The position numbers were made by a program, and so were the translations under genes. A DNA stretch of 63,331 nucleotides, the filler included, from Bacteroidales bacterium (GTDB taxonomy: Bacteria; Bacteroidota; Bacteroidia; Bacteroidales; CAIWKO01), in the NCBI GenBank assembly GCA_035389045.1. It is 5 parts of 5 records of this genome, joined end to end, with 100 filler letters (N's around TTAATTAATTAA, not from the genome) between each part and the next. Parts side by side here need not be neighbours in the genome. Positions count along the whole stretch, not along the records: positions 1 to 13,689 come from DAOORA010000091.1; 4 more parts are not named here. One strand, given 5' to 3'. Position 1 is the first letter of the stretch; every line of letters begins with the position of its first letter. The notes beneath the pieces were generated by a model that saw only the letters and a program-made list of their open reading frames with translations, searched no databases and had not been told where the DNA came from. Shown piece by piece: positions 673-54,583 of this stretch.

Positions 673-1902
673 TTGAAAATTTCCCTGTACATAGCAAAAC
701 GTTACCTTTTTGCGAAAAAATCGCATAATATCATTAATATTATTTCCGCGATTTCGGTGGGCGGGATCACTATCGGAACGGCGGCGCTTATCATAGTTCT
801 TTCTGTATTCAATGGGTTTGAAAACCTGGTGGTAAGCATGTTCAACTCTTTCAACCCCGACCTGAAAGTTACGGCAGTTGAAGGTAAAACATTTATTGAA
901 GATGATCTTGTCCTGAAGAATATTCTGAACATTGACGGTATAAGCCATCTGACCAAAGTAGTTGAAGAAAACGCATTGATAAAGTATCTGGACAAGCAGT
1001 ACATCTGCACGATGAAAGGCGTCAGCAACGAATTTTTGATGACCAGTCAGATAGACACCATGATTATTGGCGGCGAGGGTATTTTAGAACGGGGTGAACA
1101 AAATTTTGCCATAGTCGGGCAGGGCGTGTCATACAACCTCGGACTAAATCTTAATGATTATGAAAATCCTCTTGTTGTTTATGTCCCTAAACGTTTCAAA
1201 GGTACAAGGTTGAATCCTGTTGATGCATTCAACAGCATGTTGATCCAGCCATCAGGTATATTCTCGGTTCAGCAGGAAGTCGATCAGAAATACATGATTG
1301 TTCCACTCAGGTTTCTGCGCCAATTACTTGATTACGATAAACAACTCAGCGCTCTGGAGATAAGAGTTGAAAACGACGCACAGGTCACCAATGTCCAAAA
1401 GGAAGTACAAGCCCTGCTCGGTGAGAATTTCTCTGTAAAAAACAAATACCAGCAGGAAGAACTGATGTTTAAAATAATGAAGTCCGAAAAACTGGCCATT
1501 TACCTTATACTCTCATTTATACTGCTTATCGCTACATTCAATGTTATCGGTTCGCTTAGCATGCTCATCATCGAGAAACGAAAAGATATTGCCATCTTGA
1601 AAAGCCTGGGCGCAAACAACCAAACCATCCGTAATATTTTTTTTACAGAAGGCATGATGATCTCTCTTTTCGGCGCCTTATTGGGTCTGTTCATCGGCGG
1701 GGCTATCTGCTGGCTTCAGCAGACCTTCGGTATCATAAAGATCGGCCAGGGATCTACGTTTGTTTTGGAAGCCTACCCGACAAAGATTTTATTCACGGAT
1801 TTCATATATGTATTATTGATTGTAAGTTTTATAGGTTTTATTGCAGCCTGGTACCCGGTCAAATATATTTCCAGAAAACATCTGGATGACAGACTGGCAT
1901 AG
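673..1902 (+). CDS. lolE: LolC/E-family lipoprotein-releasing ABC permease (FtsX-like)
   Basis: IAKRYLF...IVLSVFNGF, large periplasmic loop, EKRKDIAILKSLGA; likely TTG start at 673 just after the rbfA stop. Confidence 0.85.
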   Translation: MKISLYIAKRYLFAKKSHNIINIISAISVGGITIGTAALIIVLSVFNGFENLVVSMFNSFNPDLKVTAVEGKTFIEDDLVLKNILNIDGISHLTKVVEENALIKYLDKQYICTMKGVSNEFLMTSQIDTMIIGGEGILERGEQNFAIVGQGVSYNLGLNLNDYENPLVVYVPKRFKGTRLNPVDAFNSMLIQPSGIFSVQQEVDQKYMIVPLRFLRQLLDYDKQLSALEIRVENDAQVTNVQKEVQALLGENFSVKNKYQQEELMFKIMKSEKLAIYLILSFILLIATFNVIGSLSMLIIEKRKDIAILKSLGANNQTIRNIFFTEGMMISLFGALLGLFIGGAICWLQQTFGIIKIGQGSTFVLEAYPTKILFTDFIYVLLIVSFIGFIAAWYPVKYISRKHLDDRLA

Positions 1903-2160
1903 CTCAAAATTATGTTTATGAATTTTGCTGCTTTATTTTCTATTTTTTTCAGCAGAAGCAAAATATCCCGGAGAAATTCAAACAATGAATAATCTTTCTA
2001 CGCAAATAGAAAAACACAATTCCGAAGTATTGTTTTATTTAAGATCCCTTGAATCATTCTCTTAAAGGCATATATTTGTATTCTTTATTGGAAATTATTA
2101 AGGAATCTTTCTGAAAAAATCATTACTGTGTATTTTTTTAATATTTAAAATCATAAGACC

Positions 2161-3210: not shown

Positions 3211-3513
3211 CAGCATCATTATATTTGAAATAAACCGATCATTGTAATCACAAACGGGAAGATCAAATTGCCGGCGGATCAAAACTGCTCAAAGCCTGCA
3301 GGACAACAGTTACGGAAAATCGGCGCTTCCATAAGCCATTTAACTCATTCGAACTCATGATGGTTTATAATATGTTCCGGGAGACATGGTTATAAAAAAA
3401 TTTGTATATGAAATTTGCTGTAAGTAATTTTGCTGAAATAAATTATACTAATTGTAATAACAACACTTACTACTGAGCGCTATATTTATACTACCAAATA
3501 TAAAACAAAATAA

Positions 3514-5379
3514 ATGAAAAAAGTTTTAGGTATTTCAGCTTTTTACCATGATTCTGCTGCTGCATTATTAATTGATGGCAACATCATTGCCGCTGCGCAG
3601 GAAGAAAGATTTACACGTCAGAAACATACACCGGATTTTCCTGTTCATGCCATTAAATATTGTCTTGAATATTCAGGTTGCAGCATTGACGAACTCGATG
3701 CCGTTGTTTTTTATGACAAACCATTGCTGAAGTTCGAAAGGTTGTTAGATACCTATTATGCTTTTGCGCCCAAAGGGCTGGTATCTTTTCTCAAAGCGAT
3801 ACCGGTGTGGACCAGAGAAAAGATGTTCTTGAAAAAATTACTCCATGAAGGCTTGCAGCAAATACAGAAATACGATAAGAAGAAACTGAAGCTCATGTTT
3901 CCCGAACACCATTTATCACATGCCGCCAGCGCGTTTTATCCTTCGCCTTACCAGGAAGCAGCCATTTTAACGGTCGATGGCGTTGGTGAATGGGCCACGG
4001 CTTCTATATGTCATGGGAAAGGCAACAAAATTAAAATGCTGAAAGAGATGAGATTTCCCCATTCTGTGGGGCTTCTGTACAGTGCCTTTACTTATTATCT
4101 TGGCTTTAGAGTCAACTCGGGAGAATACAAACTGATGGGCCTGGCGCCATACGGCAATGCAGGAGCAACGCAAACCATTGATTTCATCGGTAAAATCAAA
4201 AGTCACCTCGTTTCCATCAAAGACGACGGTTCTATTTGGTTAAATATGGATTATTTTAACTATGCGACAGGCCTCAGAATGGTGAAAGAAAAAAAATGGG
4301 AAGAACTTTTCGGGTTCCCTGCAATAAAACCGGATGGCAAAATCACACAAAAGCATTGTAATCTTGCTTATGCCATACAAAATGTCACAGAAGAGATCGT
4401 TCTGAAAATGGCCAGGGAGGCAAAAAAGATCACCGGTACCGATTACTTATGCCTTGCCGGAGGTGTTGCGCTGAATTGTGTTGCTAACGGAAAACTTCTG
4501 AAAGAAAACATTTTTAAGGACATTTTCATTCAGCCGGCAGCAGGCGATGCGGGTGGCGCATTGGGCGCAGCAGAAATAATCCATTATATGTACTATGATC
4601 AGGAACGTAAGGTTTCAGATATTGGCGATGCCATGCAGGGCGCCTATCTGGGGCCGGATTTTTCTGATAAAGAAGCTATTATTTCGTTTAAAAAACACAA
4701 AGCCGTTTATCATTGTATAGATAATTTTAATAATTTATGTTCGGAAGTGGCCGATCTGCTTGATGCCGGTAATGTGGTCGGATGGTTCCAGGGCAGGATG
4801 GAATATGGTCCCAGGGCATTAGGAAACCGAAGTATCCTGGGCGATGCAAGAAATATGGAAATGCAGAAGAAACTGAACCTGAAAATCAAGTACAGGGAAG
4901 GTTTCAGACCTTTTGCCCCTTCGGTACTGATTGAAAGTTCAAAAGATTTTTTCGACCTTCAGGCGCCTTCGCCCTATATGCTTCTTATCGCTTACGTTAA
5001 TCATGATAGAAGGGCACAACTACCTGATAATTATCAGGAAATGGATTTATGGGAAAAACTTTATTACAAAAGAAGCGACATTCAATCTATTACTCATCTG
5101 GACTTCTCTGCACGAATACAAACGGTGCATAAAGAAACTAACCCGAGGTACTGGCAACTCATCAACACCTTTAAAGAAAAAACCGGATACGGAATAGTGG
5201 TGAATACCAGTTTTAATGTCCGCGGAGAACCTATTGTGTGTACGCCCGAAGATGCCTACAAATGTTTTATGCGGACTGAAATGGACTACCTGGTGGTCAA
5301 TAACTTTATCTTAAAGAAAACCGAGCAACCCGACTGGGAAAACCGTGAAAAATGGATCGTAAAGTTTAAACTGGATTAA
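3514..5379 (+). CDS. O-carbamoyltransferase (NodU/CmcH/SxtI family)
   Basis: GISAFYHDSAA, EERF, HHLSHAAS, GEYKLMGLA, GGVALNC, GPRALGNRS, NTSFN motifs. Confidence 0.95.
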   Translation: MKKVLGISAFYHDSAAALLIDGNIIAAAQEERFTRQKHTPDFPVHAIKYCLEYSGCSIDELDAVVFYDKPLLKFERLLDTYYAFAPKGLVSFLKAIPVWTREKMFLKKLLHEGLQQIQKYDKKKLKLMFPEHHLSHAASAFYPSPYQEAAILTVDGVGEWATASICHGKGNKIKMLKEMRFPHSVGLLYSAFTYYLGFRVNSGEYKLMGLAPYGNAGATQTIDFIGKIKSHLVSIKDDGSIWLNMDYFNYATGLRMVKEKKWEELFGFPAIKPDGKITQKHCNLAYAIQNVTEEIVLKMAREAKKITGTDYLCLAGGVALNCVANGKLLKENIFKDIFIQPAAGDAGGALGAAEIIHYMYYDQERKVSDIGDAMQGAYLGPDFSDKEAIISFKKHKAVYHCIDNFNNLCSEVADLLDAGNVVGWFQGRMEYGPRALGNRSILGDARNMEMQKKLNLKIKYREGFRPFAPSVLIESSKDFFDLQAPSPYMLLIAYVNHDRRAQLPDNYQEMDLWEKLYYKRSDIQSITHLDFSARIQTVHKETNPRYWQLINTFKEKTGYGIVVNTSFNVRGEPIVCTPEDAYKCFMRTEMDYLVVNNFILKKTEQPDWENREKWIVKFKLD

Positions 5380-5493
5380 TAGCTTTGTTTTATATTAACG
5401 GATACTATTATCCCATATCACACAAGTTTATATTTCAAATCATATCAATATCCCTACAACTTTAAATTATTTATAACAAAATCAAAAATTTTT

Positions 5494-5643
5494 ATGGACT
5501 TTTTAAAAGATCTCTGGCTTTTCATGAAAGAGCGTAAAAAATATTGGCTGGCGCCCTTGATAATCGTGATATTACTTTTAGGATTATTGATCATCTTTGG
5601 AGGCGGAAGCGCCGTTGCACCATTTATTTATACGTTATTTTGA
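5494..5643 (+). CDS. SxtK-like/DUF5989 small membrane peptide (49 aa, missing from the ORF track)
   Basis: Hand translation MDFLKDLWLFMKERKKYWLAPLIIVILLLGLLIIFGGGSAVAPFIYTLF; usual partner of this carbamoyltransferase family. Confidence 0.9.
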   Translation: MDFLKDLWLFMKERKKYWLAPLIIVILLLGLLIIFGGGSAVAPFIYTLF

Positions 5644-5716
5644 TATAGGTTAGATCATTTTGCCAATATTTACCCATCCTGTTATTGACACTTAAAATCA
5701 GTGGGTAATTTCTTCT

Positions 5717-7453
5717 ATGAAAAAAAGGCCTTTAATCATTACTGTTTCACTGTTCCTTTTCGGAATAGTACTTTTCACTGTATTTTATTTTTCATATATC
5801 GGAAAAACAGCAATATATGATCTCGTCAATGTTGAATTTACCGGTGTAACTACAGAAGAGGCTGCCTCCATTAAAATTTCAGGGACTACGCCTTTTAATA
5901 AAAAGATAAATATACAAACGCCTGCCAGGGATGATTTCGGTTCTTTTGAATTTATTGAGATGTCGGTCCCAGACACGCTCGTTTCAAAAATCATTTCAAT
6001 CCGGATCGTATTAAAAAGCAAGGTTTACAAACTTAAAACGGACGATTTAATACCGAACGGTACATCAGCCTACGGTCATATCTACAGATTGCCAGGGGAA
6101 GTGAACAGTACCGGTACATTTTTCAACAGATTATTTGCATCATATCCTTTTAATATTGCGGCATCATCGTTATTCATTTCCTTCGTATCAGTGACTATTT
6201 CTATTATCCTTTTAGTGACATTCATAAAAATGATATGGAAAGGACCAAGAAAATATATCAGAGTTCTCATAGTTCAAATTAAAGAAAAGAGATTTTTATA
6301 TGTTTTTCTTTTTATTGTACTTATTATTCTTTTGCTGTTGCCCATTAAAGGGATCATCATCAAGCCGCTGATCATAATATTTTATTTTATATTTTTAATC
6401 CAAACTGCCCTTCTGTTAAGAAGAAGTTATGTTTGTTACATACTCCGTGCCGTCATAATAGTTTTCCTGTGTTTTGAACTTATTTTCGGATTTTTGAATT
6501 CAAAAAAAATTATCACTCAAACTCTTGGTGATGGAAAATACATTACGCGGGAAAAATTTACATTGGTTGATCCGAAACTCGGAGGGTACAGGCTTCTTCC
6601 AAATTGTTACCGGAAAAGAGCCACGGAAATATTAAACGGCGATACCGTTTATGATGTTTATTATTCTTCGGACAAATATGGCCGGCGAATACCGGAAGAA
6701 GTATTTTATAGTTCTCTGAACAACACAAAAAATACCAAAAAAAAGAAACATGCTGTTTTTCTGGGCTGTTCTCATACTTTTGGTGAAGGACTGGGTTGCA
6801 GTTCTTCGTTTCCGTATATGTTCGAAATTAACAACCCGGAATACCAATCATATAATTATGGATTTTCATCGTGGGGGCCTAATCAGATGGCCCTGCTATT
6901 CGATGAAGGCATAAATACCCTGAACAATATTTCAATTCCAGAAGATAGCGGTTTTTGCCTATATTCTTATATTGATGACCATATGAACAGGGTTTATGGA
7001 GGAAGTACCTATCTGGATTTCGCGGGCCAAACTGCCGATGTGTATGTAATTGATAATAAATTAATAACGGCACCCCGATCGTATATTCAACGATGCTTTG
7101 GACAATTTCTTTTCAATTCGGAAACTATGAGATATTTCAATGTAACATTCTCATATCCAAAGCGTGAGCGCTTTTATAGAAGATTTGCGGATTTAATAAA
7201 TTATTCTGCTAAAAAATACTGGGATATTAAGCCACATGGTTATTTTTATGTGGGATTATATGAATATATTTGGTCTGCTGACAGAGATTATTCATGGTTA
7301 CAGTATCTGGATAAAAAAATTAAGGTTATTTATGTTACTACTTTACCAGATATTAATTCGAATCCCATTTACAAGATTCAGGGCGACGGGCATCCTTCAA
7401 AAGCACTGAATGCATACTATATAAATGAAATTTCGAAATCAATAATAAAATAG
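5717..7453 (+). CDS. Membrane-anchored SGNH/GDSL-like protein, paralog 1
   Basis: TM helices, then FLGCSHTFGEG (block I), NYGFSSWGP (block II) and DGHP (block V). Confidence 0.75.
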   Translation: MKKRPLIITVSLFLFGIVLFTVFYFSYIGKTAIYDLVNVEFTGVTTEEAASIKISGTTPFNKKINIQTPARDDFGSFEFIEMSVPDTLVSKIISIRIVLKSKVYKLKTDDLIPNGTSAYGHIYRLPGEVNSTGTFFNRLFASYPFNIAASSLFISFVSVTISIILLVTFIKMIWKGPRKYIRVLIVQIKEKRFLYVFLFIVLIILLLLPIKGIIIKPLIIIFYFIFLIQTALLLRRSYVCYILRAVIIVFLCFELIFGFLNSKKIITQTLGDGKYITREKFTLVDPKLGGYRLLPNCYRKRATEILNGDTVYDVYYSSDKYGRRIPEEVFYSSLNNTKNTKKKKHAVFLGCSHTFGEGLGCSSSFPYMFEINNPEYQSYNYGFSSWGPNQMALLFDEGINTLNNISIPEDSGFCLYSYIDDHMNRVYGGSTYLDFAGQTADVYVIDNKLITAPRSYIQRCFGQFLFNSETMRYFNVTFSYPKRERFYRRFADLINYSAKKYWDIKPHGYFYVGLYEYIWSADRDYSWLQYLDKKIKVIYVTTLPDINSNPIYKIQGDGHPSKALNAYYINEISKSIIK

Positions 7454-7636
7454 ACATTTCTGAACCTTCTTTAACATTCTCCGATGTTTCTGAAAAATGA
7501 TTAAAAAATCCCTTCGGCTTCCAGTTTTATTGGCATTACCGTGTGCTCATCCTGTGATTATATATAACTGCAGTTACATTGGGCGAAATATATAAATACC
7601 AGCAGATTTTTATATTTAGTGTTTGAGCGGAAACCC

Positions 7637-7759
7637 AGTGTCTGAATCGAAAAGTTCAGTTTCGAGGCTTGCGAAGCGACAAAAAGCGGAGTTTACTGCG
7701 GTAAATGAGCATTTTTGGAGCAAGCGTAACGAAGAAAATGGAGTTTTCGTTCAGACACT
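7637..7759. mobile_element. MITE-like element, about 123 bp
   Basis: Terminal inverted repeats AGTGTCTGAA(T)CGAAAA / TTTTCGTTCAGACACT; internal hairpin TTTAC-TGCG-GTAAA; GC-richer than its flanks. Confidence 0.7.
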
Positions 7760-7806
7760 ATTTAAAATAAAATTCATAGAGACTTTTACTGAAACTTTTT
7801 AAAATC

Positions 7807-7846
7807 TCTGTTCGGGCTTTTTTATAACTTCGCCCTTTGATTTCTT
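7807..7846 (+). promoter_or_regulatory. Duplicated promoter/leader of SGNH paralog 2
   Basis: TCTGTTCGGGCTTTTTTATAACTTCGCCCTTTGATTTCTT, near-identical to 9802-9842; contains a TAnnTTCG -7-like box. Confidence 0.6.
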
Positions 7847-9601
7847 ATGAGAAAAAAACAAATACTCATATCTGTTTTTTTAGTACTGCTTGTAACAGCA
7901 ATCCTAACAGCATACTATGTTTTTTATTTAAGAAATATTATCATCTATGATCTGGTAAACATCGAATATACGGGGATTTCAGAGGAAGAGAGCGGGATAA
8001 TAACAACCATGGGGAACACACCTGCTGGTAAAAAAGTACCTGTAACAACGTTAAAAACCGGAAATCAACTTAGTGGCGGCTGTTTTCAGTCTATAGAATT
8101 GATAATCCCCGATACACTCGTTTCAAAAATAATTTCAGTTCAAATTAATTTGAAGAGTATTTCTTACACGTTTGCATCTAACGATCTTATTTTCAATAAA
8201 TTATCAGACAATACATCCATTTGTGTCTTGCCACCCGGGTTAAAAAGTAATGGAACTTTTATACAAAAATTGTCTTCAGCATTTCCTTTTAACCTTGTTT
8301 TTTCTTCTCCACTTTTTTTGATGTTATTTATCATTGTTCTGTTTGCAATTGCAGTGCTTTTTATCGTTATCTGCCTCATTATCATCATCAGATGGATAAA
8401 AAAGATACTTCCCGAAAACAAAAAACAACAATTCAACAAATTAATACAAAAAAGGTCTTTTCAATACCTGCTTATTTGCATTTTTTTCCTGTTGCTGGCT
8501 TTGTGGCCGGTTTTGTGGCCCGATCACATAAAAATAATTTATTTTCTTCTCATCATATTATTCGTTTTATTTCTAATAAAAACTTTATTCTGCATTAAAA
8601 AGAGTTTTACACTATATGTTTTCAATTCTATAATAATTATTTTTTTATGTTTTGAACTATTTTTCACTATTCTTCAAAATTCAGATTCTACTATTTATGA
8701 CCATTTTGCTAACAATCAAAGCAGTACAATCCTTGATGAAATAACAACGTGGAGATCAAGGCCGGATTGTTTCCGAAACAGGCATTACAAGATTTCCGGA
8801 CACGATACTATTTTTGACTATTATTTCACGACGAATGAATATGGCATTAGAATATCGGATCAGGAGTTTTTAAATCACACGCCGGATGACAAAAATCCAC
8901 ACAGAAAACATGCTGTTTTTTTGGGGTGTTCCTATACTCATGGAACAGGACTGGATTATACATCATCATTTCCTTTTTTATTTGAAAAAAAATATCCGGA
9001 GTATAAATCATATAATTTCGGAGTAAATGGTTTTGCACCAAATCAAATATGTCTGTTATTCGACGAGGGAATAAATATTATAAATGATAATTCGGTTGCC
9101 CATGATAGCGGATTTTGTATTTATACCTTTATTATTGATCATCTCAACCGTGTCTATGGTAGCAGCAACTGTTATTCCTTTAACGCCGGCAGCCCGGATG
9201 TTTATGTAAAAGATACTAAATTGATTCGCAAAAAAAGATCAGAAATCATTTCCTGGTTGCTGAACAATTCTGCAACCATGACCTACTTCAATATTCACAC
9301 AACATATCCTAAAAATGAAGAATTTTATATGCGATTTGCCGACATAATTAATTATACAGCGGCCAAATATTGGAAATTGAAACCCGCCGGCGAGTTTTAT
9401 GTGGCCATATATCCGTGCAGCAAAGAAAACGATACGGCATGGGTGAAATTTTTAAACAAAAAAATACAAGTTATAAACCCCGCCCCCCCCGCAGATATTG
9501 AAAACAATCCTTCCTATTTTATAAGTAACTGGGATCTGCATCCTACACATAAATTAAATTCTTATTATATTGAAGAAATTTCGAAATCTATAATAAAGTA
9601 G
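7847..9601 (+). CDS. Membrane-anchored SGNH/GDSL-like protein, paralog 2
   Basis: FLGCSYTHGTG, NFGVNGFAP, DLHP; shares IYDLVNIE, PDTL and LFDEGIN blocks with paralogs 1 and 3. Confidence 0.75.
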   Translation: MRKKQILISVFLVLLVTAILTAYYVFYLRNIIIYDLVNIEYTGISEEESGIITTMGNTPAGKKVPVTTLKTGNQLSGGCFQSIELIIPDTLVSKIISVQINLKSISYTFASNDLIFNKLSDNTSICVLPPGLKSNGTFIQKLSSAFPFNLVFSSPLFLMLFIIVLFAIAVLFIVICLIIIIRWIKKILPENKKQQFNKLIQKRSFQYLLICIFFLLLALWPVLWPDHIKIIYFLLIILFVLFLIKTLFCIKKSFTLYVFNSIIIIFLCFELFFTILQNSDSTIYDHFANNQSSTILDEITTWRSRPDCFRNRHYKISGHDTIFDYYFTTNEYGIRISDQEFLNHTPDDKNPHRKHAVFLGCSYTHGTGLDYTSSFPFLFEKKYPEYKSYNFGVNGFAPNQICLLFDEGINIINDNSVAHDSGFCIYTFIIDHLNRVYGSSNCYSFNAGSPDVYVKDTKLIRKKRSEIISWLLNNSATMTYFNIHTTYPKNEEFYMRFADIINYTAAKYWKLKPAGEFYVAIYPCSKENDTAWVKFLNKKIQVINPAPPADIENNPSYFISNWDLHPTHKLNSYYIEEISKSIIK

Positions 9602-9801
9602 TTTATCCCACACTCCTCTTATAATTCATCAAGACTTCAAAAAAAACAAAAGTGCGCTGCAGTTGCCTTTTACGTTGCACCACAATTTGCTCATTTTGCG
9701 TTTTTAATTCCATTGTATTTGCTCTGTTCCATACCTATTAATCATTCAGGATTCAAGTATTTAGAATAATAATAACAATTTCACTGCAGATTTTTTTCAT
9801 T

Positions 9802-9842
9802 TCTGGTCGGGCTTTTTTTATAATTTCGCCCGTTGATTTTTT
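9802..9842 (+). promoter_or_regulatory. Duplicated promoter/leader of SGNH paralog 3
   Basis: TCTGGTCGGGCTTTTTTTATAATTTCGCCCGTTGATTTTTT, copy of 7807-7846. Confidence 0.6.
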
Positions 9843-11549
9843 ATGATTAAAAAACAAATACTCATATCCGTTTCGTCACTACTGCTTGTGTCAGTGCTCT
9901 TTACGGTATACTATTTTGTTTACTTAAAGAAAGTGAACATATATGATCTCGTCAATATTGAAATTTCAGGTATTTCCCGGAACCAGTCGGGTAAAATAAA
10001 ATTTACGGGCATCACTCCCGTTAATAAAACAAAAAATATAAATACACCCATTCAAAACAGCCACGGATCTTACCAATCTATTGAAATAACTGTTCCCGAC
10101 ACGCTCATTGCACATATCACTTCAATCCGGATAATCTTAAAAAATAAAACATTCACCTATCAGATCCGCGATCTGTCTTCAACAAAACAATCAGACAACA
10201 CTCATACATTTATATTGCCTCCAGAAATAAAAAGCGGGGGATCATTCATAGAAAAATTATTTGCAGGATATCCGTTTAATGTTATTCTGGCCTCTCCCAG
10301 CCTTAAAAGCATTCTTTTCACCTTGTTGTTTCTTTTTTTTATGTTCCTCCTGCTGACATTGAATGTACTTCCCAAAAGTTATCAGGAAAAATTAATAAAT
10401 CAACTTAAAGAGAAAAAAATCCTGTATACGATACTGACCGTATTATTAATAGTTTTTTTTATATCTCAGGGCCGCGGCGATCTTATTAAAGGTATTGTTA
10501 TATTTTTTTATATCACTTTTATAATTCAGTTTTTCCTGCTGACCAAAAAAAACTTTATATTTTATATTCTCCGTTCGCTTTTAATAATTTTTATTTTTTT
10601 TGAGATTCTTTTCGGGATTCTCAATTCGGAAAACAAAGTTTCCGCTTACTTCTATGATGAGGGCATTTATATGGTCGACACGACCGTCGCATGGAAAAAT
10701 GCACCTGATTGTTTTGAAAAAAGACAAACACGGATATTAGGAAACGATACGGTTTTTAATTGTTTTATCTCAACCGATAGATTCGGTCGAAGGATATCCA
10801 GAGATGATTGTCTGAATGACACAGCCAGAACATACAATACAAAAAAGAAACATGCCATTTTCCTGGGATGTTCTCTGACTTTTGGTTTCGGATTAGATTT
10901 TGACGGTACGATACCCTTTTTATTTGAAAACAAAAATCCCGGATTCAGGTCATACAATTATGGTGTGACAGGCTATGGCCCGCATCAAATGTGCCTGTTC
11001 TTTGATGAAGGGATAAATATTGTTAATGATTCTGCTGTTCCGGAAGATAGCGGTTTCTGTATTTATACCTTTATTAATGACCATCTCGACCGGCTCTACG
11101 GGGGCAGCAGCTGCTATTCCTACAGTGGCGGCAACCCCGATGTCTATGTTAAAGATAACAAATTGGCGCATAAAAAAAGATCACAAATCATTCCATGGTT
11201 CCTGACACATTCCGAAACCATGATTTATTTCAATATCCGGACTACCTATCCAAAAAAGGAAAAATTTTATCAAAGGTTTGCTGATATAATTAATTATATG
11301 GCAGCCAAATATTGGGAAATCAAACCGTATGGTGATTTTTACGTGGGCTTATATCCCGGATGGGCAAGCAATTTGTCCTGGTTATGCTATGTAAACAAAA
11401 AAATTAAAATCCTCAACATTCCGCTCCCTTCTGACTTTGTATCCCAAAACCCGAGGTATGTAATTAGCCGACACGACATGCACCCTTCAAAAGAATTAAA
11501 CTCATATTATGTAAATAAAATTTCCAAATCAATCTTTCACAGCAAATGA
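9843..11549 (+). CDS. Membrane-anchored SGNH/GDSL-like protein, paralog 3
   Basis: FLGCSLTFGFG, NYGVTGYGP, DMHP. Confidence 0.75.
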   Translation: MIKKQILISVSSLLLVSVLFTVYYFVYLKKVNIYDLVNIEISGISRNQSGKIKFTGITPVNKTKNINTPIQNSHGSYQSIEITVPDTLIAHITSIRIILKNKTFTYQIRDLSSTKQSDNTHTFILPPEIKSGGSFIEKLFAGYPFNVILASPSLKSILFTLLFLFFMFLLLTLNVLPKSYQEKLINQLKEKKILYTILTVLLIVFFISQGRGDLIKGIVIFFYITFIIQFFLLTKKNFIFYILRSLLIIFIFFEILFGILNSENKVSAYFYDEGIYMVDTTVAWKNAPDCFEKRQTRILGNDTVFNCFISTDRFGRRISRDDCLNDTARTYNTKKKHAIFLGCSLTFGFGLDFDGTIPFLFENKNPGFRSYNYGVTGYGPHQMCLFFDEGINIVNDSAVPEDSGFCIYTFINDHLDRLYGGSSCYSYSGGNPDVYVKDNKLAHKKRSQIIPWFLTHSETMIYFNIRTTYPKKEKFYQRFADIINYMAAKYWEIKPYGDFYVGLYPGWASNLSWLCYVNKKIKILNIPLPSDFVSQNPRYVISRHDMHPSKELNSYYVNKISKSIFHSK

Positions 11550-11706
11550 ACAGTAACTTTTTATCATTTGCAATTAATATATATGCAAACCACATACAGT
11601 ATCACTCCTGACGCACTTAATTCTCTTTGTATCATGCCTGACATTTGCACGTAGCGTTATTGTCGAAGCTGTTTTTTGTACCTTTTTATCCTTTAAACAA
11701 TTTAAT

Positions 11707-13050
11707 ATGAATACAACTATATTAAAATATAAATCGCTGATTATCTCCATGGGGTTTCTGATCCTGCACCTGGTTTTTTTCTGGCAATGGGCTGTATTTG
11801 CTTCACTCTTCACCGGAATTCTTGGAATTGTTTTAGCACCGTATTTCAAGAGAATAAAGGATTTGGAACAGAACAATGTCAAATGGTTTGAGTTTTTATT
11901 ATTGGGATTGTTTTTGTTACTGCTGACATATTTATCGCTGACAATTTTCTGGTATTGCTCTTGGGTGATAATCCTTGTTGCAGCTACCGCTTATATGCTG
12001 TATGCAGGTTTCCTGTTTAAAAAAACTATTGTTAAAATATTATTTCTTAGTATCTCAGCGGTTTTTTTCGCATTCTTTATCTTTGAATTATATTTATGGA
12101 TTACCAAACCGGAAGAAAAATATAATATCATAACTACCGGAACCTGGGATATCTCCGAAAAGGGTTTATACAATCCCAACCATCCCTACCTTGGATTCGG
12201 ATTAAATAAAGACGGGTCTTTCACCTCAAAAAAGACTCTTAATAATGAAGTTTTGTTTGATGTTTCTTACACGATTAAGAATAATCTGAGATTTACCCCC
12301 AACTCAAACGAAAAAAGTCAAAACTGTGCTTTATTCTTCGGTTGTTCATTTACTTTCGGCGAAGGGCTGGGCGACTCCGTCACTTTACCCTTTTATTTCA
12401 ATAAATACGCCCATGAGGATTATAAAATTTTAAATTATGGTCTGCCCAGTTATGGACCCAATCACATGCTTGCTTTAATTGAGAACCGTGTCAGTAAAGA
12501 CATACAAGGACACAATGACAAAAAAATAGCGATATACAGCTTTATCCCTGAACATATCCACAGGGCTGCAGGGTTTTATTGGTGGGTATGCGGCCCACGT
12601 TATGAGATGATCAAGGGCCAATTACAAAAAACTGGATTTTTCAGAAGTTCTGTTATAGAAAGAAAAGTACTTTCCCTCTCTTATATATATAACAAATTTG
12701 TTTATAAACAAAAGGCAGCTCATTATGATTTTATACGAACCGTGGAAATCATTAAAAAGTCTAACGAACTTCTAAAGAAAAACGGAGTAATTCTCTATGT
12801 TTTTATATGGAATTATTGTGGATTTGATGATATGTTCAAAAATAAAAACGACTATCTTTATTTTCTGGACGAGATGAAAAAAAATCACATTAAAACATTT
12901 TTCCTCCTTGATGCAATTCCTGATCATGATAGTGATTTTGCAAAATATTCCATACCGGTTGATGGGCATCCTAACGGCCTGGTTAATGAAAAAATTGCAC
13001 AGTACCTGTACATGCAAATACACGATAGTACAGTCATCAGCAATGAATAA
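11707..13050 (+). CDS. SGNH/GDSL-like membrane protein with an SxtJ-like N-terminus
   Basis: FFGCSFTFGEG, NYGLPSYGP, DGHP; N-terminal LIISMGFLILHLVFFWQWAVFASL resembles LVISMGFLVLYLIFAWKWAIYVSL in 13214..13573. Confidence 0.72.
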   Translation: MNTTILKYKSLIISMGFLILHLVFFWQWAVFASLFTGILGIVLAPYFKRIKDLEQNNVKWFEFLLLGLFLLLLTYLSLTIFWYCSWVIILVAATAYMLYAGFLFKKTIVKILFLSISAVFFAFFIFELYLWITKPEEKYNIITTGTWDISEKGLYNPNHPYLGFGLNKDGSFTSKKTLNNEVLFDVSYTIKNNLRFTPNSNEKSQNCALFFGCSFTFGEGLGDSVTLPFYFNKYAHEDYKILNYGLPSYGPNHMLALIENRVSKDIQGHNDKKIAIYSFIPEHIHRAAGFYWWVCGPRYEMIKGQLQKTGFFRSSVIERKVLSLSYIYNKFVYKQKAAHYDFIRTVEIIKKSNELLKKNGVILYVFIWNYCGFDDMFKNKNDYLYFLDEMKKNHIKTFFLLDAIPDHDSDFAKYSIPVDGHPNGLVNEKIAQYLYMQIHDSTVISNE

Positions 13051-13213
13051 ACCTTTATGAATTTATTAACTCATATGCGTTCATATATACGAGTACTGCT
13101 TAAATATCTTACGCCTGCTTATTTATTTCTTTTGATATTTTATAACTGTTGATTACTTTTGCTAACGCAAATGCACTGCAGCCATTTTTTAATTTAATAA
13201 TAATGAAAAAAAA

Positions 13214-13573
13214 ATGAAAAAAGATACGTCAAAATCAACGATGCTGGTTATTTCGATGGGGTTTCTGGTTTTATACCTGATATTTGCCTGGAAATGGGCG
13301 ATCTATGTATCACTCGCCGTAGGACTTATTGGCATTATTTCAACTTTTTTAAGCAGCAAAATCGAGTGGGCGTGGATGAAATTATCAAAAATCCTGGGAT
13401 ACATAATCCCCAATATTTTATTAAGCCTGGTGTTTTACCTGCTTTTGTTTCCCTTATCCTTTTTTTCAAAACTGTCCCGAAAAGACCCGCTGATGCTGTC
13501 TGATAAATACCAAACTTATTTTGTTGATATCAATAAAGAACCTGATAAAAAAAGTTTTGAAAATATTTTTTAA
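13214..13573 (+). CDS. SxtJ-family membrane protein
   Basis: WAWMKLSKILGYIIPNILLSLVFYLLLFP...KDPL...FENIF pattern; carbamoyltransferase context. Confidence 0.85.
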   Translation: MKKDTSKSTMLVISMGFLVLYLIFAWKWAIYVSLAVGLIGIISTFLSSKIEWAWMKLSKILGYIIPNILLSLVFYLLLFPLSFFSKLSRKDPLMLSDKYQTYFVDINKEPDKKSFENIF

Positions 13574-13637
13574 AGCTTTCGCGATCGTTCATCTCATACA
13601 CTGTTTTTGTCGCTGCACAAAAAATGTGTACGGGTAT

Positions 13638-13689
13638 TAAGAAATTGTTTTGATTTTATCTTTTCATATCTTTATGCGTCTTTTTTGCT
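13638..13689 (+). mobile_element. End A of a multicopy TIR element (MITE/IS), at a contig break
   Basis: 52 bp identical to 40976-41027; begins TAAGAAATTGTTTTGATTTTAT. Confidence 0.75.
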
Positions 13690-13789
13690 NNNNNNNNNNN
13701 NNNNNNNNNNNNNNNNNNNNNNNNNNNNNNNNNTTAATTAATTAANNNNNNNNNNNNNNNNNNNNNNNNNNNNNNNNNNNNNNNNNNNN
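13690..13789. other. Artificial contig linker
   Basis: N44-TTAATTAATTAA-N44 (stop codons in all six frames). Confidence 0.99.
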
Positions 13790-14692
13790 ATGGACCAACC
13801 CAAACTCGAACGCCTGCTGCGCCTGATGAAAATGCTTACGGCAAACAACACCTACACTGTTGAAGATATCAGCGAACGCCTCGAAATTTCGGTACGTACA
13901 GTATACCGGTATATAGATACGTTCCGTAACGCAGGATTTGTTATAAAGAAAAAAGATGACGTGATAAAACTCGACACTTCTTCGCCTTATTTCAAAGACA
14001 TCAGCGAGCTGGTGCATTTTACCGAGGAAGAAGCATACATCCTGAAATCCGCCATAGAAAGTATAGACGAGAATAACCTGTTAAAGCAAAATCTGAAAAA
14101 GAAATTATACACCGTATATGATTACAAGATTCTGGCCGATACTATAGTCAGCGGAAAAAACGCCTCCAATGTAAAATCGCTGGTGGATGCCATTTCAGAA
14201 AAAAAACAGGTGATATTGCACAAGTACTCATCAGCGCACGGCAACAGGGTTTCAGACCGCCAGGTGGAGCCTTTTGCATTTACCACCAATTATATTCAGG
14301 TGTGGTGCTACGAACCAGAAAGCAAATCCAATAAATTATTTAAGGTTGCCCGTATGTCCGGCGTGGAAATATTGAAGAACCAATGGCAATTCGAACCCTC
14401 GCACAAAGCTGGATTTATCGACATCTTCCGTATGCACAGCGACAAATTATTGCCTGTTAAAATGACGCTGAGTGTCCGCGCCGTGAACCTCCTCCTCGAA
14501 GAATATCCATTGGCGGCACAACACATCAGCATGGTGGATGAAAACTCCTGGTTACTTGAAACCAATGTTTGTTCCTATGAAGGCGCAGGACGTTTCGTGC
14601 TGGGGCTGATGGACGACATTTCAGAAATCCAGCCCCCTGCTTTCCGTGAATTTTTAATCAGCCGGGTTAAAAAAATCGAAAAAAAATTGTAG
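13790..14692 (+). CDS. HTH-WYL-WCX transcriptional regulator (WYL-1)
   Basis: ERLEISVRTVYRYIDTF HTH; RQVEPFAF...VWCYE...KLFKVARM WYL core. Confidence 0.9.
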   Translation: MDQPKLERLLRLMKMLTANNTYTVEDISERLEISVRTVYRYIDTFRNAGFVIKKKDDVIKLDTSSPYFKDISELVHFTEEEAYILKSAIESIDENNLLKQNLKKKLYTVYDYKILADTIVSGKNASNVKSLVDAISEKKQVILHKYSSAHGNRVSDRQVEPFAFTTNYIQVWCYEPESKSNKLFKVARMSGVEILKNQWQFEPSHKAGFIDIFRMHSDKLLPVKMTLSVRAVNLLLEEYPLAAQHISMVDENSWLLETNVCSYEGAGRFVLGLMDDISEIQPPAFREFLISRVKKIEKKL

Positions 14693-14756: not shown

Positions 14757-15089
14757 ATGGAAAAGAGAAGACATTTTAAGACCTTTCACGTCGCCGGATT
14801 TACTTACTGGGATGGATGCATCGTGTTCAACGATTTAAAAATCGGCACGGAATTAACCCTGAAACGGGAGGAAGACAACAAGTTCGACCCTTACGCTGTA
14901 GCCATTTATTACAATGAGCACAAGCTGGGTTTTGTCCCGAAGGATTCCAACAAAGAGATCGACAAATTTCTCGAACAGGGATACGACGATATCTTTGAAG
15001 TGCGGATCAACCGGATTGCACCCGACGAACACCCCGAAAACCAGGTGCATGTGATCGTGTTTCTAAAGGCTAAAGAACTTCCCGGATAA
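14757..15089 (+). CDS. Stand-alone HIRAN domain protein
   Basis: FHVAGFTY, LKREEDNKFDPYAVAIY, KLGFVPK. Confidence 0.9.
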   Translation: MEKRRHFKTFHVAGFTYWDGCIVFNDLKIGTELTLKREEDNKFDPYAVAIYYNEHKLGFVPKDSNKEIDKFLEQGYDDIFEVRINRIAPDEHPENQVHVIVFLKAKELPG

Positions 15090-15318: not shown

Positions 15319-17055
15319 ATGATGGACCCTATAGTAAAATTCAGCAGGAGAATTGTTAAGCTAAATCTTTTACACAACGAAATAAAAGATATGATGACTC
15401 AGATAATTGCAGGTTACGATAATCTGGCTGAAAACAGTTATTTTCAGTCATGCATTGCTGAGTTGGGAAACTTTGAGCAATATCGTTCCGATTTTGTTAT
15501 TGAAAAATCTTACAATGATTTTCTACTTCAGTATATTTTAAATCTCAGGGGTGAAATCATTGCCTCAAAAGTATATGGACTACATTTCGCTCTCGTTTTT
15601 TCCTTAAACGGATATATTATTAAAAGTTTTGCAGATGAGGTCAGAGAATTTAAATATCATAGAAATTTATTTTTTAAAAACCTGGCACTGATAAGCAAAA
15701 ATGATGGTGATGAATCGCTGTGTGGCCTGATATCCGATACCGGAGAATTTGTAGTTCAGCCCGTTTACAAAGAAATCAGTTACCTCTATTTCCTTTATAA
15801 CAAGGTTTATTTTTTGGTAACCGATAAGTATAACAGTAAAGGAATCATAGACCATTGCGGAAGAATTGTTCTTCCTGTTATTTATGATGATATTAAGGTT
15901 AATACTATTTCGTTCAGTTATAATCATGATTTTATTGCTGTTAAAAAGAAGAAATATTACCTGATAAATTTCAAATGCGATTATGAGCAAATTGATAAGG
16001 TTTATTTTACAAAAGGTGAAAATTGTAAAATACTTAAAGTGTTTTCTTCAATAATAGAATCGTTCAATTCAACTTATATTGCTCATAAAGGAAAAAGGCA
16101 ATATTGGCTGGATTCCGGGCTTAGTGAAATACTTGCAGGAAAGGGGGTTTTTAATAAAATTAACGTCTTTTCTGATGAGGTGGATCCTTATGATGAAGTG
16201 CTGTTTGCCTGCGTAAAATCGGAGACGGGGAAATGGGGTATGTATAAGTACAACGAGAAAAGATGGTTTCCATGCGTATATGACAGGGTTGTTGTTTTAA
16301 AAAACAAATATCCTGTCTTCAGGCAATACGAGAATGTCGTACTTGTTAAAGGTAAAAATAAATACCTCTATAATTTTGAACGAAATATATCCATTAATAT
16401 ACCTGATGAGATTATTCCCCTTAGTATAAAGGAGTTCCGTGAAGACAACAGTACCTATTATGCTGCTTCGCATTGTGCAAACAAAATGTGGGCGGTTTTT
16501 GACAAGAATTTCAACCCGCTGACGGGCTATATCTTTCATCATGCCCCGGATTTCAGGAATTCTAACAAAGGTGTTCAGGTGTTTGTACCTGAATTTATGA
16601 TGCGTGATACCGAAATTGACTGGGACAATGAGTTTTATTTCTCTGTCAAAGAATTTTTCAGGGTTTTTGGTAAAAGAAAACACAGAAGTAAATCGGAATT
16701 TTTAAAAAATATAGATAAGGATTTTGTTACTGCTGAACAGAAAAAAGGAATTCTTTTCTCTGATATGTATGTTGCAGGAACTTATTATTTTGATTCCTGG
16801 GAGGCATCCTTCCATATAAATGTAAATGATGAATTATACCTGAAGGGTGATTTGACTGACATTCGCGATCGTTCAGCTATTTCTTTGTATTATAAACATA
16901 AGGAAAATGAATATAAGCTCGGTTACCTACCCCGTTTTTTGAATCGGGATATTCGTGAATTTGCAAGGACAGGCGTAAAATTCAGAATACTCGTCACTAC
17001 GGTACATATCAGAAACAATATTGCTGATATAATATTTAACATAGTGGGAGAATAA
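15319..17055 (+). CDS. WG-repeat-like protein with a C-terminal HIRAN domain
   Basis: Repeats GLISDTGEFVVQPVY, GIIDHCGRIVLPVIYDDI and GKWGMY; C-terminus MYVAGTYY...DRSAISLYY...KLGYLPR parallels the adjacent HIRAN protein. Confidence 0.65.
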   Translation: MMDPIVKFSRRIVKLNLLHNEIKDMMTQIIAGYDNLAENSYFQSCIAELGNFEQYRSDFVIEKSYNDFLLQYILNLRGEIIASKVYGLHFALVFSLNGYIIKSFADEVREFKYHRNLFFKNLALISKNDGDESLCGLISDTGEFVVQPVYKEISYLYFLYNKVYFLVTDKYNSKGIIDHCGRIVLPVIYDDIKVNTISFSYNHDFIAVKKKKYYLINFKCDYEQIDKVYFTKGENCKILKVFSSIIESFNSTYIAHKGKRQYWLDSGLSEILAGKGVFNKINVFSDEVDPYDEVLFACVKSETGKWGMYKYNEKRWFPCVYDRVVVLKNKYPVFRQYENVVLVKGKNKYLYNFERNISINIPDEIIPLSIKEFREDNSTYYAASHCANKMWAVFDKNFNPLTGYIFHHAPDFRNSNKGVQVFVPEFMMRDTEIDWDNEFYFSVKEFFRVFGKRKHRSKSEFLKNIDKDFVTAEQKKGILFSDMYVAGTYYFDSWEASFHINVNDELYLKGDLTDIRDRSAISLYYKHKENEYKLGYLPRFLNRDIREFARTGVKFRILVTTVHIRNNIADIIFNIVGE

Positions 17056-24547: not shown

Positions 24548-25558
24548 TTATTTATATAATTTATTCAATTTTTTTATTCGTTCTTTAAGTTTTTCATGTA
24601 AATGTTGTGGTTCAAGCACTTTCAGGAACTCGCCAAAACCTATCAGCTCCCGTTCCATTTCGAAATTCGGGATCACCTCTATTGAAAAAACAATCCCATC
24701 TTCTTTTTGCTCAATTAACTGCTGCGACCAGTGAAATGGCTTGGTAACGACATAAGGCGCATGTGACTTTTCAACCCAGAAAACAACTTTTTCAATCTTT
24801 ACATTGTCAAATTTTGTTACCCCTATAATATCCCTGAAATATTCATCAGGGTTAAAAAAAGTATTTTCAATATACTCATCCTCTGATGAAAATCTTAACC
24901 TTAAAATGCGGTCGAGCGCCAAAGGAGCCATTTTTTCCCTGAACTTGCTCTTGCCAAATACAAACCAGCGGTTTCTGTATTCCTTCAGCAGATATGGGCT
25001 AAGCCTGACAATAATGGGTTTAGTGGCAACAAAGGATAGGTAAACAATTTTAAGTACAGCTTTATCCTTGATGGCTTTATAAATATTATCAAGAAATTTA
25101 ATCCCTTTCAGGTCGTTGTTTTTTTCAAAATCTATAATGCTCCTTGCAGGGTTGTTTATTGCAAAGACTTTATTTTCTATTTTTTTAAGCACATCCTCCA
25201 TATCAGAGAACTGGCTGAACCCTTCAAATTGTTTCAATGTGTGGGTAATCTGCGAGAGCGTGGTAATATCGCCGGGGGTGAGCGGCATGTTGGTTATGCT
25301 GAAACCGGTATCATCATATGTATAATACTTTTTATCTGTTACCACAATAGGCGCATTGTATCCGAGCTTTTCGCTGCGCATGTTCTGTATATCAAGTTGA
25401 ACGGTTCTCAGACTCACGCCCTGCCTTTTTCCCTCAAATTCATACAACGCATCCGAGCAGGCTTCCACCAGGTCGTAAATGGTCCATTTGCGGTAACGGT
25501 TGCGCAGGCAATTATCAATGGTTTTATAACGTATTAATGCAAGACGGTTGGCCGGCAT
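24548..25558 (-). CDS. WYL-domain transcriptional regulator (WYL-2, Bacteroidota type)
   Basis: MPANRLALIRYKTIDNCL...SLRTVQLDI, SPYLLKEYRNRWFVFG...LALDRI; likely start at 25558. Confidence 0.92.
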   Translation of the reverse strand: MPANRLALIRYKTIDNCLRNRYRKWTIYDLVEACSDALYEFEGKRQGVSLRTVQLDIQNMRSEKLGYNAPIVVTDKKYYTYDDTGFSITNMPLTPGDITTLSQITHTLKQFEGFSQFSDMEDVLKKIENKVFAINNPARSIIDFEKNNDLKGIKFLDNIYKAIKDKAVLKIVYLSFVATKPIIVRLSPYLLKEYRNRWFVFGKSKFREKMAPLALDRILRLRFSSEDEYIENTFFNPDEYFRDIIGVTKFDNVKIEKVVFWVEKSHAPYVVTKPFHWSQQLIEQKEDGIVFSIEVIPNFEMERELIGFGEFLKVLEPQHLHEKLKERIKKLNKLYK

Positions 25559-25596
25559 AAATATTTTTTTTACAAAATTCATAAAAAAAATCATAC

Positions 25597-25633
25597 TGCG
25601 CAAATTGTTTGCGTACTTGTACTATTATTTTGC
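25597..25633 (+). promoter_or_regulatory. Candidate WYL-2 operator plus -7-like box for rtcB
   Basis: TGCGCA-N7-TGCGTA-N10-TATTTTGC, same spacing as 24504-24540. Confidence 0.7.
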
Positions 25634-27470: not shown

Positions 27471-27570
27471 NNNNNNNNNNNNNNNNNNNNNNNNNNNNNN
27501 NNNNNNNNNNNNNNTTAATTAATTAANNNNNNNNNNNNNNNNNNNNNNNNNNNNNNNNNNNNNNNNNNNN
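27471..27570. other. Artificial contig linker
   Basis: N44-TTAATTAATTAA-N44. Confidence 0.99.
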
Positions 27571-41028: not shown

Positions 41029-41128
41029 NNNNNNNNNNNNNNNNNNNNNNNNNNNNNNNNNNNNNNNNNNNNTTAATTAATTAANNNNNNNNNNNNNNNN
41101 NNNNNNNNNNNNNNNNNNNNNNNNNNNN
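41029..41128. other. Artificial contig linker
   Basis: N44-TTAATTAATTAA-N44. Confidence 0.99.
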
Positions 41129-41235
41129 AACGAAAATAAGAAATACCCGGCTGAAACATTACATAATTTCAAAAATGAATTCTGCCGTCATCTTTCAAAA
41201 TATTGCGTAAATTCGCAAAATCAATATCCATTGGC

Positions 41236-53933: not shown

Positions 53934-54033
53934 NNNNNNNNNNNNNNNNNNNNNNNNNNNNNNNNNNNNNNNNNNNNTTAATTAATTAANNNNNNNNNNN
54001 NNNNNNNNNNNNNNNNNNNNNNNNNNNNNNNNN
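53934..54033. other. Artificial contig linker
   Basis: N44-TTAATTAATTAA-N44. Confidence 0.99.
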
Positions 54034-54530: not shown

Positions 54531-54583
54531 ATCACTTTCTCAATTTTTCCCTTCAATATATGAATTTCTTCTTACCTTTATAC

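Follow-up and report, generated by a model that had tools for sequence, protein, structure and literature searches.

The small protein DltX carries D-alanine on the invariant tyrosine of a C-terminal FXYXXF motif, the 'acyl shuttle'. MBOAT proteins of the PatA type end in the same hexapeptide, the tyrosine of which is auto-acetylated, and an acetylated FIYANF peptide acts as donor for PatB (all from the available text of PMC12148441). SxtJ and SxtK (DUF5989), named in 2008, have had no mechanism since; the available text of reviews and of a 2026 preprint assigns them none and describes them as 'hypothesised to work in conjunction' with SxtI. SxtL was proposed as a decarbamoylase (PMC2679770, PMC12300590, available text). 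Here we analyzed a stretch of 63,331 nucleotides from a Bacteroidales bacterium (GenBank assembly GCA_035389045.1), in the following termed the window. Its first sequence piece carries, all on the + strand, genes for a carbamoyltransferase (CT), a DUF5989/SxtK microprotein (K), four SGNH-like membrane proteins (S1 to S4) and an SxtJ-like protein (J) in the order CT-K-S1-S2-S3-S4-J. We judge it evenly balanced whether this locus is an MBOAT-independent variant of the acyl-tyrosine relays with carbamoyl as cargo, directed toward envelope polymers. The seven genes had been called in a first-pass annotation of this DNA, and all of them were recovered at the same positions, on the same strand and as the same kinds of protein.

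Peptide K, carbamoyltransferase CT and SxtJ-like protein J

The gene for K (5494..5643, +) encodes a peptide of 49 amino acids that matched PF19451 (DUF5989) with 91.5 bits (cut-off 27) over profile positions 1-49 of 49 and is thus a member of this family. It has a conserved basic N-terminus that includes ERKK, then a hydrophobic helix (residues 19-37), the linker GGGS and the C-terminal end AVAPFIYTLF. The terminal FIYTLF is an exact FXYXXF motif at the very C-terminus, with Tyr46 as its tyrosine. K was the only open reading frame (ORF) of at least 30 amino acids in the window with a [FYWP]xYxx[FYW] C-terminus. The first-pass annotation had likened the tail to those of DltX and AlgI-type MBOATs, and the likeness is borne out by the published motif and by MBOATs from genomes that carry CT, SxtJ and SxtK, which end in FIYFQF (twice), YIYFDF and PIYLQF.

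Conservation of the tail was analyzed in several sets. Scanning 1.84 billion representatives with HMMER yielded 4252 matches to K (50%-identity clusters, E ≤ 0.001), the best 150 of which were read. All 121 close homologues had F[IV]Y[TSA][LI]F; among the best 150 of the 4252, FxYxxF was present in 143 and formed the last residues in 125, and the 25 without a terminal motif resembled run-on or frameshifted gene calls. Because only the best 150 were seen and one of the patterns used to find loci was the tail itself, a second sample was added by searching 301 genomes from a single phylum with the Pfam DUF5989 model, so that the choice did not depend on the tail alone. DUF5989 exceeded the cut-off in 122 of these genomes (a tally that includes the unpublished genome G170, by presence only) compared to none of 14 control genomes. 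From this sample, the 30 best matches together with 19 of the weakest ones were read, 49 loci in all. The tyrosine was kept in 48, and a stop codon directly followed the matched tail in 48; the exception, L147, had FICTLV, a degenerate helix and one additional residue. The conservation of the tyrosine across DUF5989, on which the earlier proposal depended, thus held in each set. The GGGS linker, also part of that proposal, is present in K, but GGG is confined to Bacteroidota and only G38 (82%) and S39 (98%) are generally kept. Overall, K is 55-90% identical across phyla.

In 125 representatives, residues 1-18 contained 4.6 Lys plus Arg on average and residues 36-49 contained none, and a charged residue occurred in the tail of only six. 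Since basic residues precede the helix and none follow it, the positive-inside rule predicts a cytoplasmic N-terminus and a tail outside the cell; the annotation had likewise assumed a C-terminus that is not cytoplasmic, and the prediction agrees with it.

Several unusual forms of K were observed. In a Cytophagales locus (L090 10001-13075), two DUF5989 copies have identical tails (GGSSVVAPFIYSIF) and different helices. Two Bacteroidales genomes with S paralogues encode a divergent K-like peptide of 53 amino acids ending in SFIYAGV, L105 at 1492-1897 (-) and L107 at 1492-1944 (-), preceded upstream by a shortened SxtJ-like gene (71-79 amino acids); the L107 genome has a divergent CT (44% identity) on the same contig. 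Three weak K-like loci were found in viral contigs. In addition, 17 long ORFs (105-197 amino acids) that end in K were considered as fusion proteins, but Pfam found only DUF5989 in them and they were rejected since their N-terminal parts look like reading-frame artefacts (six were read).

CT (3514..5379, +; 621 amino acids) is an O-carbamoyltransferase of the NodU/CmcH/TobZ type with both characteristic domains, matching PF02543 (Carbam_trans_N, E 4.3e-91) and PF16861 (Carbam_trans_C, E 1.9e-71). It reached 122 bits against the NodU equivalog NF041651 of NCBIfam (cut-off 1000) and is therefore not NodU itself. Enzymes of the TobZ/NodU family activate carbamoyl phosphate with ATP. No transmembrane or hydrophobic segment was found in CT by hydropathy, and because it has no membrane segment and requires ATP and carbamoyl phosphate, CT is expected to act in the cytoplasm, where it would be the donor enzyme. 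Its identity to the DUF5989-adjoining CTs of 57 further loci, drawn from many phyla, is 52-69% whatever the neighbourhood. As judged from sequence, this constancy fits a single, constant acceptor, namely the equally constant peptide K. In one locus (L164 8139-14479), genes for the small and large subunits of carbamoyl-phosphate synthase (carA/carB) directly follow the K-linked CT, which fits carbamoyl phosphate as donor.

J (13214..13573, +; 119 amino acids) is a small membrane protein that matched PF19588 (SxtJ) with 25.8 bits, marginally above the cut-off of 24.4. In alignment A4, composed of J and 52 J-like ORFs adjoining K (53 homologues), only W54 and P80 were (near-)invariant, and no obvious catalytic residue was present. 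The earlier suggestion that SxtJ replaces the MBOAT therefore found no direct support, and we propose J as an adaptor between CT and K. In locus L066, one ORF contains Carbam_trans_N, Carbam_trans_C and SxtJ, that is, a natural CT-SxtJ fusion. A search among longer proteins gave no SxtJ fusion at E ≤ 0.001, a negative result of little weight.

None of the 50 ORFs of the window that were scanned belongs to an MBOAT or AT3 family, which extends to the whole window the statement of the annotation that no MBOAT lies between CT and sxtJ; at this locus, a loading protein of either type was thus not found. The same was seen in other loci. In a first sample, comprising the best 80 of 581 places with K relatives in representative genomes, 41 of 1334 ORFs end in FxYxxF, and 39 of these are K and two are MBOATs according to Pfam. 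No other long ORF with a shuttle-like tail was present in 78 of these 80 loci, nor in any of 20 loci of the second sample. The Pfam MBOAT model had no match in three of five whole genomes with the trio, two of the three being single-chromosome records.

SGNH-like proteins and their linkage to the trio

Between K and J lie S1 (5717..7453, +; 578 amino acids) and its paralogues S2 (7847..9601, +; 584 amino acids, 43% identity to S1), S3 (9843..11549, +; 568 amino acids, 46%) and S4 (11707..13050, +; 447 amino acids, a distant paralogue with 25%). No Pfam match was obtained for S1 to S4, and S3 weakly matched NF047474 (SGNH/GDSL, NCBIfam; E 0.0039). The SGNH-like domain of S1 spans approximately residues 270-578, with Ser352, Asn380, Gly382 and His559, and is preceded by a separate N-terminal outer domain; relatives of the domain numbered only 15 among 5.8 billion proteins. 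In alignment A2 (18 sequences), Ser352, located in F-[LF]-G-C-S-x-T-[FH]-G-x-G-L, was invariant (18/18), as were N380 and G382, which by alignment are the putative oxyanion residues of block III (Asn) and block II (Gly). His559 was kept in at least 90% of the sequences, the preceding Asp was replaced in 4 of 18 (FWHP, YKRP), and E254, a Glu in the last membrane helix, was nearly invariant. All four proteins of the locus have the block I nucleophile Ser within F-[LF]-G-C-S-x-T, with GCS kept in S2 to S4, and the block V motif D-x-H-P near the C-terminus, as DLHP in S2, DMHP in S3 and DGHP in S4. In the wider alignment A3 (55 sequences, block I consensus LGDSFTxGxG, followed further on by DxH), Ser, Asn, Gly and His (His290) were near-invariant.

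The relationship of S1 to S4 to the SGNH fold was established transitively. With hhalign, A2 matched c2, a family of about 400 amino acids adjoining K in other phyla, with a probability of 98.9% (E 1.6e-17), and in profile-profile comparisons with the K-neighbour clusters c2 matched a Lipase_GDSL_2 cluster (c16) with 98.5% and a GDSL+TPR cluster with 98.0%. Lipase_GDSL_2 was matched by 32 of the 55 members of A3 and ALGX by six. Against solved structures, A3 matched GDSL/SGNH proteins (best E 1.5e-14), CgnD (8a2n, 1.2e-7), PatB1 of B. cereus (4e-6), AlgX (2e-5) and AlgJ (1.6e-4); the narrower profile A2 had no match to PDB sequences. In the ESM Atlas model of S1 (mean pLDDT, the predicted local distance difference test, 0.59), residues 270-578 aligned with the Lipase_GDSL_2 and ALGX clusters at template-modelling scores of 0.70-0.85. 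Thus, as judged from their sequences, S1 to S4 are SGNH-like proteins with intact Ser and His that belong to no curated family. The motifs of A2, the profile matches and the Atlas alignment agree in this with the first-pass annotation, which had described four SGNH-like proteins with intact Ser and DxH.

S1 to S3 have about five hydrophobic segments each, with basic loops that place the C-terminal SGNH domain outside, and the arrangement of S4 is similar. Most K-linked SGNH-like proteins from other loci have a single N-terminal hydrophobic segment (a single N-terminal transmembrane segment in 33 of 42 c2 proteins). The tail of K and the SGNH domains are hence predicted on the same, outer side of the membrane. 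S4 starts with a copy of the N-terminal hairpin of J, sharing 48% identity with it over 42 residues (BLASTP, E 9e-12), and the likeness is also visible in the DNA, over about the first 125 coding bases of the two genes.

Going by its record titles, the first sample of 80 loci is rich in Bacteroidota and cyanobacteria and also includes several proteobacterial classes, Nitrospira, Acidobacteriota, Verrucomicrobia, Elusimicrobia, Patescibacteria and others; K was also found in SAR11-type genomes. A CT was present within 75 of the 80 K loci and a J-like ORF (115-175 amino acids) in 60, so that CT, SxtJ and SxtK form a near-universal trio on one strand. Bacteroidota-type loci have the order CT-K-J, other loci CT-J-K or J-K-CT. 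Four genomes without CT at the K locus have one elsewhere, in Trichodesmium about 22 kb from an array of J, K and SGNH genes. SGNH-like ORFs were searched with models built from the neighbour clusters of the first sample and the S family. Of the 80 loci, 55 contained at least one within 10 kb (56 if the PF00657 gene of L017 is counted) and 46 within 3 kb, and in 32 loci at least one lay on the same strand not more than 200 bp from the trio. Their density was 3.17 per 10 kb at distances below 1 kb compared to 0.15 per 10 kb at 6-10 kb. Tandem SGNH paralogues were common, as in Trichodesmium, where five c2 genes and one c3 gene follow J-K. The combination of constant CT and K with diverse, paralogous SGNH partners fits a constant donor with variable acceptor modules.

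Members of the S family itself were found inside the operon in other genomes. L093, L094 and L096 have the order CT-S-K-J, and in L092 CT-S lies at the end of a contig. L090 has two K copies, one behind each S gene, and thus the order CT-S-K-S-K-J. Six of 12 close S-family loci, from five genomes, had no trio within 10 kb; a DUF5989 match was present elsewhere in all five genomes, in four of them above the Pfam cut-off.

When 76 ORFs flanking the first-sample loci without SGNH-like ORFs were scanned with Pfam, only the GDSL protein of L017 was found. In this cyanobacterial locus (7731-13195), CT-J-K is followed by a PF00657 GDSL protein and a MatE exporter. The locus looks like a natural-product cluster, since genes for TauD, a CmcI-like protein, SnoaL, a methyltransferase and an SDR protein surround these genes.

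Proposed carbamoyl relay and alternative explanations

Based on these results we propose the following relay. Cytoplasmic CT would activate carbamoyl phosphate with ATP, as established for TobZ and NodU, and pass the carbamoyl group to Tyr46 in the P-F-I-Y-T-L-F tail of K. SxtJ would hold CT and K together at the membrane and may allow the tail, which is uncharged, to pass from one face to the other; this step is the weakest of the scheme. Serine hydrolases are carbamoylated at their active-site Ser by aryl carbamates. At the outer face, the aryl carbamate on K could accordingly be transferred to the catalytic Ser of an SGNH-like protein, by analogy to DltX-DltD and PatA-PatB, and from there to an acceptor hydroxyl, probably on an envelope glycan. 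S1 to S4 would then provide four acceptor specificities. In this scheme, the SGNH proteins would be transferases rather than hydrolases. A more general form of the proposal is that a widespread CT-SxtJ-SxtK machine carries carbamoyl across the membrane without MBOAT or AT3, that interchangeable outer SGNH transferases deliver it to envelope glycans, and that in natural-product clusters with these four genes the relay acts on the exported metabolite, the GDSL partner being the final carbamoyltransferase rather than a hydrolase; this we put forward tentatively, with somewhat less confidence than the reading of the locus itself.

A number of observations weigh against the relay. Loading is its weakest link, as CT is cytoplasmic and Tyr46 is predicted outside, and the route between them is unexplained; the tail might move through a groove formed by SxtJ, since it is uncharged apart from its carboxylate and has a conserved G-S hinge. 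J, with W54 and P80 as its only conserved residues, is far smaller than an MBOAT. K showed no sequence membership in DltX: up to E = 10, Pfam reported only DUF5989 and a chance match to SurA_N_3, and an Atlas feature search with K gave no link to DltX. The annotation's designation of K as a DltX analogue thus holds for size, predicted topology and motif, but not for sequence relationship. S1 to S4 have no Pfam match of their own, and pLDDT averages only 0.59 in the Atlas model. Furthermore, the GDSL protein following K in L017 has no transmembrane segment.

The linkage to SGNH genes also has its limits. It had been proposed as a test to survey the co-occurrence of the trio and SGNH genes with and without MBOATs; SGNH-like ORFs were indeed enriched at MBOAT-less trios in the first sample, but among 20 loci of the second phylum, each taken with 8-kb flanks, only 4 contained such an ORF, compared to 17 with CT and 16 with J. 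There, Pfam on 51 flanking ORFs gave a single Lipase_GDSL_2, and glycosyltransferases were found in four loci. Four loci (L178, L180, L181 and L182) share the arrangement rplI-(CT, J, K)-dnaB-alr, with the trio set between housekeeping genes, and have no SGNH gene within 8 kb. By our models, 25 of the 80 first-sample loci had no SGNH-like ORF either; as these models were built from first-sample neighbours, they favour matches near K and may miss other SGNH families. Finally, a true MBOAT lies near the trio in L059, L067 and L093, and the SGNH genes of these three loci may serve it.

Many of these observations would be accommodated if the trio were a membrane-tethered carbamoyltransferase. SxtJ and SxtK would then have a structural or regulatory role, CT would directly carbamoylate a lipid-linked or soon-exported substrate at the inner face, the tail of K would be a protein contact, and the SGNH proteins would be separate outer esterases, e.g., decarbamoylases. 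The problem of topology vanishes with this assumption, the CT-SxtJ fusion requires tethering only, and the trio is constant and often alone, as in the 16 of 20 and 25 of 80 loci without SGNH-like genes. Glycosyltransferase and polysaccharide-export genes beside several loci would be in line with such substrates, and in the saxitoxin literature SxtI, SxtJ and SxtK act together and SxtL is a hydrolase (PMC2679770, PMC12300590, available text). Nevertheless, we regard this explanation as rather unlikely. It leaves unexplained that K is most conserved in its tail, which is uncharged, is predicted to lie outside and ends in an exact FXYXXF, that MBOAT-less SGNH genes are enriched 20-fold at the trio, that S and K were duplicated together as S-K-S-K, and that CT is constant across very different neighbourhoods.

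Two further possibilities concern the role of single components. K might be the end substrate, a ribosomal peptide whose C-terminal Tyr is carbamoylated and which is perhaps cleaved by SGNH-type enzymes. Crocagin biosynthesis combines a precursor peptide, the SGNH-type hydrolase CgnD, by which the core is released, and the carbamoyltransferase CgnI (PMC10070186, available text). CgnD (8a2n) is also among the solved structures matched by A3. However, K is a membrane peptide that occurs in 122 of 301 genomes, often among housekeeping genes, with 55-90% identity across phyla, and natural-product precursor peptides are not known to show such conservation. Moreover, the S proteins are multi-pass membrane proteins, and the operon's piece of the window contains no other tailoring enzymes, which makes this role of K very improbable. 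Still less probable in our view is that S1 to S4 were inserted into a CT-K-J operon to which they are unrelated, and that their position has no functional meaning. K and J are directly adjacent in most Bacteroidota loci, the S array, in which upstream regions recur, has the appearance of a tandem duplication and contains a repeat element between S1 and S2, and half of the 12 close S-family loci lack a trio within 10 kb. Against an insertion stand the independent S-family genes inside the operon in L090, L092, L093, L094 and L096, the similar placement of distantly related SGNH families in cyanobacteria and other phyla, the N-terminal SxtJ hairpin of S4, and the presence of K in all five S-bearing genomes checked.

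If the relay proposed here is correct, it would be the first extracytoplasmic carbamoylation pathway and the first case of a soluble, ATP-dependent enzyme feeding an acyl-tyrosine shuttle. The acyl-tyrosine shuttle would then be a general device with at least three unrelated loaders, MBOAT, AT3 and CT plus SxtJ, and marker genes would make it possible to predict the O-carbamoylation of surface polymers. The old question of the role of SxtJ and SxtK becomes directly testable at one tyrosine (+43 Da).

Gene neighbourhood and comparison with known systems

The window consists of at least five separate pieces joined by runs of N around TTAATTAATTAA (13690-13789, 27471-27570, 41029-41130 and 53934-54033). 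Because it is a chain of separate pieces, gene order across these linkers is no evidence of linkage, and J is the last gene of its piece due to the linker at 13690..13789, which ends the operon-bearing sequence. Within 3300-13689, promoter-like sites were at chance level (44 compared to 42.8 expected), and a scan of this region for intergenic terminators revealed no clear one between the genes. Contigs from two runs labelled metatranscriptomic were identical to parts of CT, K-S1, S2, S3 and J, and one contig of 521 bases from runs labelled in this way spans K into the start of S1 (5446-5966). As such libraries may hold DNA and the contigs are strandless, this is only a hint at expression of the operon, and gaps in the coverage carry no information.

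The regions upstream of S2 and S3 (7784-8033 and 9779-10029) are 72-78% identical and were duplicated along with the genes, which indicates from the sequence that the S array grew as units of about 2 kb, leader included, were duplicated in tandem. The region separating S1 from S2 contains, at 7625-7760, a palindrome of about 130 bases (ends ...CAGTGTCTGAA / TTCAGACACT...). The depth of metagenome contigs at this element was about 10-fold that of its surroundings (30 compared to about 3, run X3), and many contigs break there; it looks like a dispersed small repeat resembling repetitive extragenic palindromic (REP) elements or miniature inverted-repeat transposable elements (MITE). The next piece encodes a WYL/WCX regulator (13790-14692), a HIRAN-domain protein of 110 amino acids (14757-15089) and a 578-amino-acid protein without family (15319-17055). 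A second WYL/WCX regulator gene (24551-25603) is divergent from that for RtcB (25652-26824). A direct-repeat array with a 9-base unit (ACTCATTTG-like) occupies 54028-54522 just after a linker, upstream of a 739-amino-acid ORF without family (54560-56779).

The literature searches, with subscription journals and supplements outside their scope, returned no paper on DUF5989 and none that links an acyl shuttle to a carbamoyltransferase or describes periplasmic O-carbamoylation by SGNH proteins. A search for a link between DltX and carbamoyl gave no relevant paper, as judged by titles and the starts of abstracts. The remark in the annotation that no trans-membrane carbamoylation relay of this kind has been described thus stands within the literature searched.

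Among the known systems, crocagin biosynthesis (CgnA/CgnD/CgnI) shares with this locus a small peptide with a Tyr-containing C-terminal core, an SGNH-type hydrolase and a carbamoyltransferase (PMC10070186, available text). The crocagin peptide is a soluble precursor that is consumed, whereas K is a highly conserved, widespread membrane peptide. In the saxitoxin clusters, SxtI-SxtJ-SxtK(-SxtL) represent the same three families with an adjacent GDSL-type sxtL (PMC2679770, available text), but the locus does not belong to a toxin cluster and lies on a Bacteroidota-like chromosome piece without other sxt-type genes. In the peptidoglycan O-acetyltransferase OatA (AT3-SGNH), a membrane domain acetylates its own Tyr and serves an outer SGNH domain (PMC12148441, available text). 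There, AT3 and acetyl-CoA are used within one fused protein, whereas no AT3 family was found at the loci scanned here.

The relays PatA-PatB and AlgI-AlgJ/AlgX, which O-acetylate peptidoglycan and alginate, are more similar in that a C-terminal FXYXXF acyl-Tyr feeds an outer SGNH transferase (PMC12148441, available text), and PatB1, AlgX and AlgJ are among the proteins matched by profile A3 of the K-linked SGNH proteins. In PatA and AlgI, the motif is fused to an MBOAT with acetyl-CoA as donor, whereas here it is borne by a separate peptide and an MBOAT is absent. In DltX-DltB-DltD, the teichoic-acid D-alanylation system of Firmicutes, a free-standing single-helix microprotein of about 50 residues uses an extracellular C-terminal FXYXXF Tyr to pass the group to the Ser of a membrane-anchored SGNH-like protein (PMC12148441, available text), much as is proposed for this locus. 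K and DltX agree in size, predicted topology and motif, the extracellular position of the K tail being assigned by the positive-inside rule only. In place of the MBOAT DltB and a carrier protein, neither of which is found here, the locus has an ATP-dependent CT as donor together with SxtJ, and the proposed cargo is a carbamoyl rather than an aminoacyl group.

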